A program made the position numbers and the translations under genes. Below, piece after piece: positions 31,334 through 50,779 of a stretch of 64,000 nt of DNA. Every line of letters begins with the position of its first letter. Within the stretch, counting starts at the first letter, position 1. The stretch lies in assembly GCA_012474735.1 (NCBI GenBank), contig GCA_012474735.1_4085.1; one strand, 5' to 3'. Origin of the DNA: a phage. The notes beneath the pieces were generated by a model, which was not told the origin of the DNA, searched no databases, and was given only the letters and a program-made list of their open reading frames with translations.

Positions 31334-31481
31334 TTTGAATCTCCTAACTTTGTGGGCCGTCGCACCATTGCCGCCCTACGAGATACATTATCGCAGTACT
31401 GATATACTTTGTCAATACTTTTTATTAATAGTTTTCACTCCACCAGCAGATAGTTACTCACCGTTATTAACTATATATTTT

Positions 31482-31576
31482 AGATACACCTATGCACCCT
31501 GTGGGCTAGTTTTTGTCTATGCGTATATAATAGCAAAGGGACTGACCGGAGTCAATCCCTTTTTTATTCTTTTTTG
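31482..31576 (-). repeat. conserved intergenic unit, copy 1 (GCACCCTGTGGG motif plus hairpin/T-run terminator)
   Basis: ~95 bp shared with copies at 33745, 36754 and 40786; hairpin 31536-31561 then T-run. Confidence 0.55.
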
Positions 31577-31777
31577 TTAGATGATTCTCCAATCTTCTAC
31601 GATGATTGTAAGATACCGGACCAACGATTCTAGTGATTCGTGTTCTCGATAGTCTGCCGCTCCACCAGCGGTACAAGTACAGCCGATTAAACCATTTTGC
31701 AATTCCTTAATCTGTACATCGATAAGGTTGGCTTTAGCTTCTTTCAGTACTTCAACCAGGGCGAGAGCGATAGACAT
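31577..31777 (-). CDS. hypothetical protein (66 aa)
   Basis: ORF; RBS ggagtaaaacattATG; promoter 31833-31860. Confidence 0.6.
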   Translation of the reverse strand: MSIALALVEVLKEAKANLIDVQIKELQNGLIGCTCTAGGAADYREHESLESLVRYLTIIVEDWRII

Positions 31778-31832
31778 AATGTTTTACTCCAAACTATTGG
31801 CGGGAGAACTATTCCCCCGCTCTATGTAAAAC

Positions 31833-31860
31833 ATTATACATTACTGGTTAGTACTGTCAA
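31833..31860 (-). promoter_or_regulatory. sigma70-type promoter (TTGACA-N16-TATAAT)
   Basis: rc reads TTGACAgtactaaccagtaatgTATAAT; hairpin GCGGGGGAAtagtTCTCCCGC downstream. Confidence 0.55.
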
Positions 31861-31867
31861 ATAGTTT

Positions 31868-32125
31868 TTATGAAATATCTTCGATGTAGTCGGCCCATTT
31901 CATTTTTTCAGTACTGTCAATTGCTACCGGATTATTTGGATCAAACCATTCACCATTCCCGCAATACATACCCACGGCAACGGTTTTATATCCATCCTGT
32001 GCAGTACTCCACGACATAGCACGATAGATATGGCCTTTAACTGGTTGCAATACTGGTAATGTTTTATGGTCTTCTACGTAGGCCATAGCTTGAGGATTTA
32101 CCCGATATTGTGTGAACTGTTCCAT
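31868..32125 (-). CDS. hypothetical protein (85 aa)
   Basis: ORF; RBS ggggaaacataATG. Confidence 0.6.
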   Translation of the reverse strand: MEQFTQYRVNPQAMAYVEDHKTLPVLQPVKGHIYRAMSWSTAQDGYKTVAVGMYCGNGEWFDPNNPVAIDSTEKMKWADYIEDIS

Positions 32126-32153
32126 TATGTTTCCCCTTGTAGTTAGTAAAGTT

Positions 32154-32182
32154 ATTACATCAGTACTATCAAGCTATGTCAA
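32154..32182 (-). promoter_or_regulatory. sigma70-type promoter (TTGACA-N17-TGTAAT)
   Basis: rc reads TTGACAtagcttgatagtactgaTGTAAT. Confidence 0.5.
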
Positions 32183-32201
32183 TAGTACTGAAATAAAACT
32201 T

Positions 32202-32426
32202 TTAGATTAGATTATTGATGCCGTTGATGGTAGACTCGCTTTCTTCTTTCTCCCATTGGCGGTAGTACTTCCATGCTTCATGATATGTGGCGATTAGTTC
32301 ATCTTTTTGATCCTGAGTACATGCCAGTATTGAATCACGGTGAGCGGTGTTATAGATAGAATCGAATGATTTCTTCTCTTCTGCCAGGTTAGCTACTTCC
32401 CGCATCAGTTCATCAAAGTTAGCCAT
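32202..32426 (-). CDS. hypothetical protein (74 aa)
   Basis: ORF; RBS aaaggagtaataaaATG; promoter and 5' hairpin GGGGGAGatatCCTCCCCC upstream. Confidence 0.6.
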   Translation of the reverse strand: MANFDELMREVANLAEEKKSFDSIYNTAHRDSILACTQDQKDELIATYHEAWKYYRQWEKEESESTINGINNLI

Positions 32427-32493
32427 TTTATTACTCCTTTTAGTGGGGGAGGATATCTCCCCCTATGCAAAACATTATACTTTGTTTTAGTTA

Positions 32494-47691: not shown

Positions 47692-47778
47692 TTTTATTAC
47701 TCCAGGTTATAGGCGGGAAGAGTTCCCGCTCTCGATGTAAAACATTATACGCCTTTAAACATAGTTTGCAAGTACTTT

Positions 47779-48045
47779 TTATTCAAGTACTGCAATCTTT
47801 TTAGTACGGTACACGGTCACGCGGTTGCCCTTTCGGTCGAGCTTTATTTCTACCACTCGACGCGATACACTATCGGGACTTTTTAAGGCCGCTAACCAGT
47901 ACTGTAATGATCTGGCGGTACTACGCTTTACAATGGCCCAACGTTTACCACGTTCCGATTGTACGCCCATATCTTTAAACGTTGCCCCGTCCTGGCGTGC
48001 GGCGATCCGAGCTTGTTCACGCGTCGCAAAATACTTAATATTCAT
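47779..48045 (-). CDS. hypothetical protein (88 aa); paralog of 35348..35743
   Basis: start at MNIKYFATREQARIAAR with RBS aagggcaacagcATG. Confidence 0.6.
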   Translation of the reverse strand: MNIKYFATREQARIAARQDGATFKDMGVQSERGKRWAIVKRSTARSLQYWLAALKSPDSVSRRVVEIKLDRKGNRVTVYRTKKIAVLE

Positions 48046-48133
48046 GCTGTTGCCCTTATCGTTGGTGTATGAATAAAACACTATTATAAAGTACTATCCC
48101 CGTGCAATAGTACTTTAAATAAATTCTATTCTA

Positions 48134-48373
48134 TTACATTCCAACCATTGCCGCACGGATCGCAGTAGTGCTATATTTGAATCCGTCCGGTGTTTTATCT
48201 TGTCCAGTCTGTTCTAAAAATAACATCATATGACGGGCCGCATCATTGCGATTAGTGCTATCGTTAATAAAGTCCTGGGCCAACCGGTATAATGATTCAT
48301 CGTTATTAATCCAAAGGCTTACATTCCAATGAGTTTTGTTTTTGTGACCTAAGAACATTTTTGATTTAGCCAT
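48134..48373 (-). CDS. hypothetical protein (79 aa)
   Basis: ORF; RBS agaggattaaaaaATG; promoter TTGCAT-N16-TATAAT. Confidence 0.6.
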   Translation of the reverse strand: MAKSKMFLGHKNKTHWNVSLWINNDESLYRLAQDFINDSTNRNDAARHMMLFLEQTGQDKTPDGFKYSTTAIRAAMVGM

Positions 48374-48465
48374 TTTTTAATCCTCTTATATAGTGGGGAA
48401 CTATTCCCCACCTGATAGAAAGTATTATACTTGTTTTAACTTAGTATGCAAGTACTTTATTAAAC

Positions 48466-48828
48466 TTATTTGTAAATTTTGCCACTGTCAGCCCATACCA
48501 GGAAACGATGCATATTATCCCATGCATCTTGTTTTAAATTTAAACCGTGCAATTCCTCAGTAGTTGCCATCCCTGGTACTGGCTTACTACACACCGCGAA
48601 ATTTTCGCCCATGTACTGATAAACCATCGTTAAATCATTTGAGATCATTATATGGATCATTGAATCAAGCATCAAAGTAGCGGCGTATTGTTCACGCTTA
48701 AGCGGCAACATTGCAATAAGTTCCCGATAAGCTGCAATGTGAATTTTTACAGTTTCAGCCGGAAGACCTTTCATCTCTTCGCGGAAGTTTACCAGGTTAA
48801 GCATGATTTTAGTGATTTGAGTCGCCAT
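48466..48828 (-). CDS. hypothetical protein (120 aa)
   Basis: start at MATQITKIM with RBS aagagagattaaaacgATG; promoter and 5' hairpin upstream. Confidence 0.55.
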   Translation of the reverse strand: MATQITKIMLNLVNFREEMKGLPAETVKIHIAAYRELIAMLPLKREQYAATLMLDSMIHIMISNDLTMVYQYMGENFAVCSKPVPGMATTEELHGLNLKQDAWDNMHRFLVWADSGKIYK

Positions 48829-49191
48829 CGTTTTAATCTCTCTTAATGTGTAGCGGGAAGTGTTCCCGCTCTCGATGTAAAACATTATACGCTTTTATCA
48901 GTACGGTGCAAGTACTTTCTACAAATACTTTTAAAATAGTTTTCTTTCTATATAGGGGAACTATTATTCAGTACTGCAACCATCCAGGGGAACTATCTTT
49001 CTATATAGGAGTACTATTATTCAGTACTGAATCAATCAACCAAATCACTACTACACCCCGTAAAACGGCCTCAGACGCATTCTAACGCATTAATACACCC
49101 AAGCTATACATTTGCACCATTCCAATCATTCCAGGGCTTTACAGGCCGTTTAAACGCGTTAAATTATTTTCAATTATTTTGTTTTTAGCTA

Positions 49192-49219
49192 TTGACTCAG
49201 TACTAAAAAAGCGTATAAT
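49192..49219 (+). promoter_or_regulatory. plus-strand sigma70-type promoter (TTGACT-N16-TATAAT)
   Basis: TTGACTcagtactaaaaaagcgTATAAT followed by ACCCCAGGGGGTGGGAAGATCCGTC. Confidence 0.5.
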
Positions 49220-49406
49220 TACTACATAGACGCGAGAAAGCGGATACCCCAGGGGGTGGGAAGATCCGTCCAAAATTCAAGATATAAAAAAAGGATACAC
49301 TCCCGCACCCTAGCAGGTTAACGCACTTTCTCAGTACTGAATTATAGTACCATAGTCCGGCCCAGGATGGCAAGCAAATTAATTAAAACTTTTTTCATCC
49401 AGGGTA

Positions 49407-49434
49407 TTGCTTTATTTTTCCAGTACTGTATAAT
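49407..49434 (+). promoter_or_regulatory. plus-strand sigma70-type promoter (TTGCTT-N16-TATAAT)
   Basis: TTGCTTtatttttccagtactgTATAAT followed by AGCCCACCGGGTGCATAGTTACGCCC. Confidence 0.5.
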
Positions 49435-50779
49435 AGTTCCATCAAGTCGAGAAAGACTCAAGCCCACCGGGTGCATAGTTACGCCCAAAATTCAGTACTG
49501 AAAAAATTTTTAAAAATATCCGTCCAGGCCGTTGACATTGCCCCCAGTTTATAAGATAATGATTCCAGATTCAGAAAAATCTAACTCCAGATACTGCGGG
49601 GAAACTATCCCCACGCGGTAGGGGAACTATTGGAAAAAACAAAATAAAATTTTGATTTAGCCGTCTATACTTCCAGACGTGTAACCATCTAGCCGTTTAG
49701 CCGTCTAGATGGATAGCCATCTTTACTTCCAGACTTCTGGAGGGCTAGACATATCTACGCCCAAAATCCATCCAGGGTAACTACGCCCAAAATCCGTCAG
49801 TACTATACCATAGATCTATCTTTTGAAAGGGAGTATTCAGTACTGCCATCATAGCCCTCACTATGTTACCCTAGGAGGATGAAGACTATCATGTAGTACT
49901 GAATACTGTTAGAGGGAATCCACCAGCTTGTGCTGGTGGCATAATGCTTTAGATTAAAATCAGTACTGACACCATTCTGTTAATATCAGTACTGTTATTA
50001 CGATTTTCATATGAGGTTCAAAAAGATGTACCACCACAGGAGGAACTATCTTTTCTGTACTGTCTCACGACAGGAGGTAGAGTAAATGAATTGTTCGCAG
50101 CAACTCATCTCTCTATGTAGAACATTATACAGTACTGAATCATAATGTCAATAGCTTTCTTTCATTATTCAGTACTGATATTCTTGAGAACTACCCGACT
50201 ACAAACATCATTATATCCCACAAATCATAAACGTCCCAACGTAAATTTCAACTTTCGAAGATCCAACTTTTATTTCATAGGTACTCCAAAATTTTTAGGA
50301 TCGAGATTTAGGATGGAGTACTAACCAACTTTTTGCTGGAGCCTCAAGGGGTAATTGAATTTTACCCCGAAGGGTAAAGGGGTAATTGAAATTAAGGTGA
50401 AAGTAATAATTCAGTACTAATCATTGCGTGATTACTTTTGATTACATTTGATGTAATTTGAAAAATGGAAAAGGAGCTTGGAAACTACAAAGTACGGCAG
50501 ACTTCCTCTGCCTACTTAGTGGCATATCAGTACTGAATCCTTCCCTAGCATTCTTGAGCAATCTTGTCTATACTAATCAGTACTGAATCATATATAATCA
50601 TTCTGTGATTCTACGGTGCTCATATAAATGTTTATATATGATTACTTATGACTACCTATGATTACGGGGTTTAGCCTGGGGAGAATCCTAGTGATCGCAT
50701 TTGTCCAGGCTGAATTTTAACAATTCGCCTGTACATAAAGGTTGTTCACTAGGAGCTTCCCCTGTCTACTTGTGTTTAA

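Follow-up and report, generated by a model that had tools for sequence, protein, structure and literature searches.

The 64,000-nt stretch of phage DNA analyzed here (contig GCA_012474735.1_4085.1 of NCBI GenBank assembly GCA_012474735.1; hereafter the window) is 93–97% identical to Asteriusvirus jumbo myoviruses (348–386 kb) isolated on Escherichia coli, and from relatives at this level of identity we infer that its host is E. coli. As judged by homology, the window carries one collapsed copy of the direct terminal repeat (DTR) of these phages, with unique DNA on each side. All 11 exact copies of Chi, the octamer that serves as the RecBCD regulatory site of E. coli and its relatives, fall within the DTR, and the Chi cluster is co-extensive with the ~20 kb repeat.

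The terminal repeat and its Chi sites

The ends of the DTR were placed in the window by homology to relatives with PhageTerm- or restriction-mapped ends, which puts the repeat at ~30,080–50,516 on the minus strand (~20.4 kb), with both junctions represented. Several Asteriusvirus records start at the equivalent of window position 50,516, and the annotated 21,525 bp DTR of phage vB_Ec-M-J maps to ~30,084–50,516. The window is collinear with the unique-to-right-DTR junction of phage fEgEco12 at 50,516/50,517, and with the left-DTR-to-unique junction of the same phage at ~30,080. The DTR is 20,993 bp in fEgEco12, according to PhageTerm and restriction digests (PMC13070987), 20,668 bp in Sharanji (PMC11895373), and 19,736 bp in fENko-Kae01 (literature value). 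The genome is oriented along the minus strand of the window, with its left terminus at 50,516; the DTR ends at ~30,080, which is also where the virion DNA has its right terminus. The DTR encodes ~46 small open reading frames (ORFs) on the minus strand, and its GC content is 38% vs. 33% outside. GC content rises from 0.30–0.35 to 0.36–0.41 across the DTR, and such steps mark repeat boundaries; GC skew flips sign at ~50 kb, at the left terminus, and transcription reverses direction there as well.

The exact Chi octamer (5′-GCTGGTGG-3′, or CCACCAGC on the complementary strand) occurs 11 times in the window between 31,440 and 49,939, with nine copies on the minus strand and two on the plus strand; the remaining 43.6 kb has none. 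One hundred dinucleotide-preserving shuffles give a chance count of 0.54 for the window (SD 0.70, maximum 3), and Markov models of orders 1–5 predict 0.45–1.6 copies for the window and 0.15–1.25 for the 20.4-kb stretch. Ranked by Poisson P, Chi is fourth of all 8-mers in 30,084–50,516 (P = 8e-14; 11 copies vs. 0.33 expected); the three 8-mers above it all contain AGTACT and show ~6–7-fold enrichment, vs. 33-fold for Chi. Among the 168 words of the same composition, Chi ranks first in the DTR (11 copies; mean 0.33), and the runner-up has four copies, which overlap Chi-bearing terminator-like stems. The 24 one-mismatch variants of Chi total three copies in the DTR and are not enriched. Both orientations of Chi are enriched ~35–45-fold, and the density in the DTR is 0.54/kb, vs. 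~0.22/kb in E. coli and ~0.015/kb expected. The exact Chi octamer is itself specifically enriched in this stretch.

A preliminary description of the window, made from the sequence alone, had claimed that Chi is over-represented, and this holds against the shuffles, among same-composition words, and under the Markov expectation that it had proposed as a check, at all five orders and for both the window and the 20.4-kb stretch. Its figure of at least nine copies was low: it listed eight positions and missed those at 33240, 34655, and 38007. Three of the listed coordinates were off by 1–2 bases (31439, 31663, and 39467, for 31440, 31662, and 39469), and the rest were right. It had also described the copies as mostly intergenic, as indeed 7 of the 11 lie outside minus-strand ORFs, which span 65% of the stretch (P = 0.05). 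Its caution that some copies lie in repeated elements and are not independent applies to a single pair: flank similarity is found solely between 31440 and 36739. The effect is minor, with eight independent loci remaining when this pair and each inverted pair are counted once.

Starting from the right terminus, the first minus-strand Chi (31440–31447) lies ~1.36 kb in; it is intergenic and ~25 nt upstream of the −35 hexamer of a promoter. Next are three coding copies, at 31662–31669 (in ORF 31577–31777), 33240–33247 (in ORF 33032–33304), and 34655–34662 (in ORF 34458–34700), followed by an intergenic copy at 36739–36746, in a repeated element common to that at 31440, and a fourth coding copy at 38007–38014 (in ORF 37919–38113). 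Three of the coding copies read Ala-Gly-Gly (31662, 33240, and 38007, the last in the frame GCT-GGT-GG), and the one at 34655 reads Leu-Val (xxG-CTG-GTG-G). The copy at 39469–39476 forms the entire 3′ arm of a terminator-like hairpin at 39,466–39,491 (11 bp stem including three G-T pairs; ΔG −9.2 kcal/mol, z −3.4), which is followed by TTTAATTCATT; there is no clean T-run downstream, and a terminator consensus scan makes no call there. The loop of this hairpin, tggttaacGCTGGTGG, recurs at 19,354 in fENko-Kae01 with another stem (GGCCAC/GTGGCC). The terminators at 43,281–43,302 and 44,009–44,030 (minus strand) share the stem AGCCCAC/GTGGGCT with 39,466–39,491, and in the latter variant the altered loop and 3′ arm spell Chi.

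The remaining four copies form two back-to-back pairs, each of which includes one of the two plus-strand, left-facing sites. The pair at 43187–43194 (minus strand) and 43249–43256 (plus strand) is intergenic, with 54 nt between the two exact octamers, and no significant secondary structure was found for it. The pair closest to the left terminus comprises 49920–49927 (minus strand), the last site before the left terminus that an enzyme coming from the right end could read, and 49932–49939 (plus strand), 577 nt from the left terminus. These are the left and right halves of a 20 bp palindrome, CCACCAGCttgtGCTGGTGG, of the form CCACCAGC-N4-GCTGGTGG, in the non-coding left-terminal region. The preliminary description had reported this palindrome, which folds as an 8 bp hairpin (ΔG −9.9 kcal/mol, z −3.7) and is unlike an intrinsic terminator because no T-tract follows it. 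The palindrome block is common to Asteriusvirus and fENko-Kae01 (484−/496+), with the spacer TTAA in the latter vs. TTGT here. The Chi at 49932 is kept in vB_Ec-M-J and fEgEco12, and fENko-Kae01 has one at the equivalent place.

RecBCD reads 5′-GCTGGTGG-3′ when approaching from the 3′ side, such that top-strand Chi is active for enzyme entering from the right end (PMC12315714). Nine sites face the right end, at ~1.36, 1.6, 3.2, 4.6, 6.7, 7.9, 9.4, 13.1, and 19.8 kb from the right terminus, and the two left-facing sites lie 0.58 and 7.3 kb inside the left terminus. Correct orientation toward an entry end is found at both termini (nearest sites 577 and ~1,360 nt), and at both back-to-back pairs (spacers of 4 and 54 nt) an enzyme from either direction reaches its own active Chi first. 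Across the clade, a left-facing Chi lies 216–585 nt from the left terminus in three of the five lineages with a mapped left terminus (in Xanthomonas phage XbC2, a single left-facing Chi at 216), and the last right-facing Chi is found 375–1,361 nt short of the right terminus in each of the four lineages measured.

Recurrence in related jumbo phages and other motifs of the repeat

For fEgEco12, Chi was counted in the whole genome. There are 12 Chi per 20,993 bp DTR copy (0.57/kb) and 24 in the 332.7 kb of unique DNA (0.072/kb), giving an 8-fold higher density in the DTR; the shuffle expectation is ~0.007–0.01 per kb. A permutation control covered 129 kb of the unique DNA, in which Chi occurs seven times and the Gly/Ala-codon permutations GGTGCTGG and GCGGTGGT occur eight and seven times, respectively. 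Chi is thus matched by other Gly/Ala-codon words in unique DNA, and the Chi-specific excess therefore belongs to the DTR. Read from annotation tables, 21 of the 24 unique-region copies are on the sense strand of a gene. Six of the 24, all sense, fall among ~14 tandemly arrayed RCC1-like ('chromosome condensation regulator') paralogues that immediately precede the right DTR (fEgEco12 333.8–347.3 kb; 9,092–22,562 of the locus analyzed), and a copy at 6,623 of the EJP2 locus analyzed is grouped with them. The six are probably paralogous copies of one coding word and not independent sites.

All 11 Chi of the window are intact in vB_Ec-M-J and fEgEco12 (176 of 176 bases), with ±60 nt flanks that are ~94% identical; at that divergence the chance survival of an octamer is ~0.62 per site per pair. 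This pattern suggests that the sites are under purifying selection. The twelfth Chi of the fEgEco12 repeat reads GCTGATGG in vB_Ec-M-J and is absent from the window; this site is not shared, and there has therefore been some turnover of Chi.

A Chi cluster lies within the terminal repeat in all eight genomes of the clade that were examined, even where the assembly has collapsed or rotated the repeat. The DTR of fENko-Kae01 (Klebsiella aerogenes; ~29% average nucleotide identity) aligns to that of the window only at short promoter-like repeats and a few left-terminal blocks; its 19.7 kb contain 14 Chi, with two in the adjoining 30 kb. There are eight Chi in the 20.0 kb DTR of Muenster (K. pneumoniae; Alcyoneusvirus) and none in the adjoining 30 kb; eight in the ~21 kb DTR equivalent of EJP2 (a divergent E. 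coli lineage) and one in the adjoining ~35 kb; nine in the 17.6 kb DTR of XbC2 and three in the adjoining 32 kb; and 12 in the 32.0 kb DTR of a second Xanthomonas phage, XaC1, with none in the adjoining 18 kb. CMSTMSU, an indel-rich 'UNVERIFIED' record from which only counts were taken, has 11 in a ~21 kb homologous stretch and none in the adjoining ~19 kb. Chi ranks first among its 168 permutations in the DTRs of the window, fEgEco12, fENko-Kae01, and XaC1, and across these four the 24 one-mismatch variants total three to eight copies per DTR. Chi occurs in terminal non-coding DNA, promoter spacers, terminator-like stems, and coding sequence, as well as antisense to genes. The coding copies use two frames in the window and the third in Muenster, such that all three are represented across the clade, and fENko-Kae01 has four Chi in promoter spacers, three of which end 2 nt before the −10 hexamer. 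Chi is kept in all of these contexts while the surroundings are replaced, and a DNA-level signal is therefore the simplest explanation.

Further afield, Yersinia phage fHe-Yen9-04 has no Chi in the 40 kb around its kinase-like gene, but this is a tRNA-rich block rather than a mapped DTR and is thus uninformative. A scan of IMG/VR for CCACCAGC-N4-GCTGGTGG returned 46 contigs, nearly all of them unrelated (5–90 kb), and one a 348 kb jumbo relative.

The DTR also contains an unusually dense array of consensus promoters for the host polymerase. Perfect sigma-70 promoters (TTGACA, 16 or 17 nt, TATAAT) number 12 in the window, all of them in the DTR and on the minus strand (31,833–50,151), or approximately one per small gene, and none occurs in the other 43.6 kb. 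In this respect the DTR resembles the pre-early or early region of T5-type phages. The hexamer AGTACT (a ScaI site) occurs 262 times in the window vs. 21.6 expected from base composition, with 131 copies in the DTR and 131 elsewhere, and is often extended to CAGTACTG or AGTACTGA (e.g., 33,358–33,385, 36,215–36,242, and 40,268–40,295). In 6 of the 12 perfect promoters the spacer ends in AGTACTG directly before TATAAT, and in three the −35 region reads TTGACAGTACT. In XbC2, words containing AGTACT lead the enrichment ranking, and they are common in fENko-Kae01 as well; XaC1 has GTACTTAA and GTACTCAA instead. The XaC1 DTR (1–32,031) also shows strong enrichment of CTATCCCC/GGGGATAG, with 20 copies where 1.1 would be expected, and of CCCGAGGG-type palindromes, with 10 where 0.1 would be, and these motifs of XaC1 were not seen in the enterobacterial relatives.

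Three minus-strand hairpins with a 12 bp stem are located at 31,535–31,562, 36,807–36,834, and 40,845–40,872; the first two are identical (AAAGGGATTGACTCCGGTCAGTCCCTTT) and the third is a variant (AAAGTGGTTGACTTCGGTCAGCCATTTT). The 5′ arm holds a TTGACT −35 hexamer for a TATTAT downstream, and this overlap of terminator-like hairpin and promoter hints that the element may act as a switch or insulator separating early genes. The left-terminal region of the DTR (48886–50516, minus strand; ~1.6 kb) is non-coding, with no minus-strand ORF of ≥50 aa past 48,885, and an alignment of six termini shows blocks conserved across genera ~150–250 nt from the terminus. At 50,270–50,370 (minus strand), a block containing CTCCAGCAAAAAnnTGG and AGTACTCCATCCTAAATCTCGATCCTAAAAATTTTGGAGTACC is recognizable in Asteriusvirus, fENko-Kae01, and XbC2, equally far from the left terminus in each, and parts of it are kept in Muenster and XaC1. 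This block is a candidate for an element of terminus recognition or packaging. A scan of the DTR against Rfam gave no match.

A proposed role for RecBCD at the genome ends

The best explanation, which we hold with moderate confidence, is that the octamers are genuine Chi sites, kept dense by selection in the DTR of this jumbo E. coli phage and of the wider clade, where they buffer the genome ends via RecBCD. The preliminary description had proposed Chi-mediated protection or recombination of linear phage DNA; this is still the best-supported reading, with precedents in P1 and the LLS-type lambdoid phages, and it becomes specific through the coincidence of Chi with the DTR, an overlap that had gone unseen. 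From the presence of Chi, the specificity for the octamer, its confinement to the DTR, its conservation, its recurrence in diverged lineages, and its geometry relative to the ends, all observed here, we infer RecBCD as the reader, together with the physiological outcome.

By this mechanism, the injected genome would be linear double-stranded DNA, both of its ends exposed at a time when no phage protein has yet been made, and host RecBCD would load at either end, unwinding and degrading inward. The enzyme would meet an oriented Chi within the repeat, at 0.58 kb from the left or at 1.36 kb from the right (with eight more behind). At Chi, the nuclease would be attenuated and RecA loaded on the 3′ tail; the RecA filament on repeat DNA could then pair with the homologous repeat at the opposite end of its own molecule or in a second, co-infecting genome, leading to circularization, concatemer formation, or recombination-primed replication. 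The repeat would thereby serve as a sacrificial, recombinogenic buffer, and no unique information would be lost because degradation would stop in sequence duplicated at the other end. About a third of RecBCD–Chi encounters are productive; nine sites would therefore stop nearly all right-end enzymes within the repeat, and two would stop about half of those from the left. The DNA of relatives is cut by ordinary restriction enzymes (PMC13070987) and two relatives carry only Dam/Dcm-type methylation, and RecBCD should therefore be able to act on it. When 40 DTR ORFs were compared with PHROGs families in search of Gam, gp5.9, Abc2, or end-protection proteins, no RecBCD inhibitor was recognizable; the only matches were to families of unknown function, to one DksA-like protein, and to one acetyltransferase.

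Several points weigh against early buffering by RecBCD. The DTR proteins, mostly of unknown function, may include an unrecognized RecBCD inhibitor or end-capping protein. fEgEco12 is annotated with RecA/UvsX-like, single-stranded DNA-binding (SSB), recombination-mediator-like, and gp46/47-like proteins, and the LLS-type lambdoid class with which the clade invites comparison is defined by the lack of recombination and anti-RecBCD genes; the presence of such recombination genes might be reconciled with use of RecBCD because, in the timing proposed, the host enzymes would act first. T5 has only two Chi in its DTR, and the loading is therefore a property of this clade and no necessity for phages with a DTR. 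The left end has two correctly oriented sites vs. nine for the right end, and Muenster and XaC1 have no left-facing Chi in the first 750 nt. The orientation of Chi relative to the DNA ends, to which the preliminary description had drawn attention, is as expected in that a correctly oriented site lies near each end, but the 9:2 bias is no stronger than strand composition, and polarity therefore gives no independent support. Strand polarity was accordingly rejected as functional evidence: pooled over four lineages it is 36:7 (84%), vs. 0.80 predicted by an order-2 Markov model per strand (P = 0.33).

The host of XaC1 is a further difficulty. This phage, reported only on Xanthomonas vesicatoria (PMC11273794), has the same Chi loading; Chi is active in all enteric bacteria tested and inactive in Pseudomonas (bioRxiv 10.1101/2021.07.08.451572). 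In an unrelated Xanthomonas jumbo phage, XacN1, GCTGGTGG ranks eighth of 168 words and has no specific enrichment. The Xanthomonas phages of the clade were considered as a natural negative control and rejected as such: XbC2 and XaC1 are both loaded with Chi, and XbC2 is the lesser difficulty of the two, being 84.6% similar to an Erwinia phage. The enterobacterial host proposed in the preliminary description is supported by the identity of the window to E. coli phages; Chi enrichment alone is no proof of it, given the loading in XaC1. A broader proposal, which we put forward tentatively and consider rather doubtful, is that the RaK2/121Q-like ('group 2.2') jumbo phages as a whole acquired Chi loading long ago as an adaptation and have retained it while the sequence of the repeat turned over completely, presenting a sacrificial buffer that tames RecBCD and promotes recombination despite their own recombination genes; XaC1 would then imply that Xanthomonas RecBCD reads the enteric Chi, in which case the Chi of Xanthomonas would be identified, or that the reader is borne by the phage.

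Chi may instead act via RecBCD but late in infection, protecting or recombining the ends that arise from replication and packaging (rolling-circle or concatemer tails, and terminase cuts), as it does for lambda red gam mutants and rolling-circle plasmids. This is the less likely timing, although a credible one: it agrees with everything seen on enrichment and conservation and does not exclude early buffering, terminase must cut concatemers at the DTR, and 9 of the 11 sites face one direction, with a packaging-generated end setting the active orientation in lambda and LLS-type phages (PMC12315714). However, by that stage the cell would contain recombination proteins encoded by the phage, perhaps along with nuclease inhibitors, and composition accounts for the one-directional bias. 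That the octamer is read by a factor other than RecBCD (phage-encoded or virion-borne), as a clade-specific cis element merely coinciding with Chi, strikes us as improbable. Such a reader would accommodate the persistence of the loading in XaC1, whose only known host is Xanthomonas, the lack of any sign from XacN1 that GCTGGTGG matters in that genus, and the recombination genes that the phages carry; moreover, three of the spacer Chi of fENko-Kae01 occupy the slot that holds AGTACTG in half of the perfect promoters of the window. Against this, an 8/8 match to the host Chi by an independent motif would be a coincidence of ~1 in 33,000, no constant spacing relates the sites of the window to genes, promoters, or terminators, and the lack of enrichment of one-mismatch variants fits the known stringency of Chi. 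The remaining hosts of the clade are all Enterobacterales, where Chi is active, and the similarity of XbC2 to an Erwinia phage makes recent enterobacterial ancestry plausible for the Xanthomonas isolates.

It is very improbable that the end-proximal Chi mainly limit the RecBCD products that feed CRISPR spacer acquisition or RecBCD-coupled defenses, mimicking 'self' DNA. Chi reportedly bounds spacer-acquisition hotspots (Levy et al., 2015), and there are sites within ~1.4 kb of both ends, but the sequence offers nothing specific to this role, which would be a by-product of the same attenuation of RecBCD, and it has been argued that Chi does not discriminate self from non-self (bioRxiv 10.1101/2021.07.08.451572). 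The least probable explanation is that the enrichment is a by-product of GC content, codon usage, repeated elements, or host-derived DNA. The higher GC content of the DTR, the Ala-Gly-Gly word (GCT-GGT-GG) in three of the four coding copies, and the common repeated intergenic element of two copies would all favor it. The GC content of the DTR is nevertheless far below that of E. coli, Chi leads the 168 words of its own composition and exceeds every Markov expectation, seven copies are non-coding and at least eight loci are independent, and the pattern recurs in DTRs that no longer align. Explanations from composition, codons, repeats, and host DNA are effectively refuted.

If early buffering by RecBCD is correct, then a large, therapeutically relevant group of jumbo phages infecting E. 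coli, Klebsiella, Salmonella, and Erwinia would depend on, or at least manipulate, RecBCD in the first minutes of infection, RecBCD status would be a determinant of host range and resistance, and the strategy of exploiting Chi would extend from P1 and the lambdoid class to virulent phages with their own recombinases. The Chi cluster also provides a practical marker for the true genome ends in collapsed or rotated assemblies, and the loading in XaC1 leads to a testable prediction on the Chi sequence of Xanthomonas.

Comparison with known systems

The use of Chi at repeated or exposed phage ends to exploit RecBCD has already been published for P1 relatives and for a lambdoid class, and the over-representation of Chi in some phages was analyzed earlier by Bobay et al. 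(PMC3784561). No report of Chi loading in jumbo phages was found in the Asteriusvirus and jumbo-phage literature, and the P1 and lambdoid Chi papers do not include jumbo phages; a full-text literature search combining Chi, RecBCD, and jumbo phage gave nothing on Chi in jumbo-phage terminal repeats, as far as titles and abstracts indicate.

P1 has 50 Chi, densest at its terminally redundant ends, and grows ~20-fold less well in hosts mutated in recA, in recBC, or in Chi recognition by recC (bioRxiv 10.1101/2021.07.08.451572). Like P1 (and P7 and D6), the clade has a Chi density above that of the host, concentrated at the terminally repeated packaged ends and much of it non-coding, and for both, RecBCD/RecA recombination between the terminal repeats after injection is proposed (bioRxiv 10.1101/2021.07.08.451572; PMC12315714). 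P1 differs in being a 94 kb temperate phage with headful packaging and a permuted redundancy of ~5–10 kb, its Chi spread over end zones, whereas the phages of this clade are virulent, with genomes of 350–385 kb, fixed non-permuted repeats of ~20 kb, and a Chi-specific excess confined to the repeat. Furthermore, RecBCD dependence has been demonstrated for P1, while for the clade the evidence is from sequence and relatives are annotated with their own recombination machinery. The LLS-type lambdoid phages likewise have many Chi toward one genome end, against the local GC content, read as the use of RecBCD for recombination-dependent growth, and they grow better with RecBCD (PMC12315714). They are cos phages of 30–58 kb with a strong orientation bias (20:3) tied to the cos end freed by terminase (PMC12315714), whereas the bias here equals the compositional expectation.

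As with chromosomal Chi of E. coli, the octamer is the same 5′-GCTGGTGG-3′ and lies mostly on the G-rich, transcribed-sense strand. The chromosomal sites are near-uniform (~1 per 4.6 kb) and 13 times commoner in ORFs than outside (bioRxiv 10.1101/2021.07.08.451572), whereas here there is one per 1.9 kb in DNA of 38% GC, confined to 20 kb and mostly non-coding. With T5 the clade shares a long non-permuted repeat packed with small early genes, each with a strong sigma-70 promoter, and PhageTerm classes the relatives as 'long DTR, T5 type'; the T5 repeat differs in its length (10.1 kb) and in having just two Chi, and T5 is not known to rely on Chi. The T5 sites (AY587007), at 8,048 and 8,610, are the sole two in the first 50 kb and both lie in the left repeat; this is not significant but in the same direction. 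Set beside these systems, what is unusual here is the strict confinement of Chi to a fixed 20 kb repeat, in virulent phages with their own recombinases.

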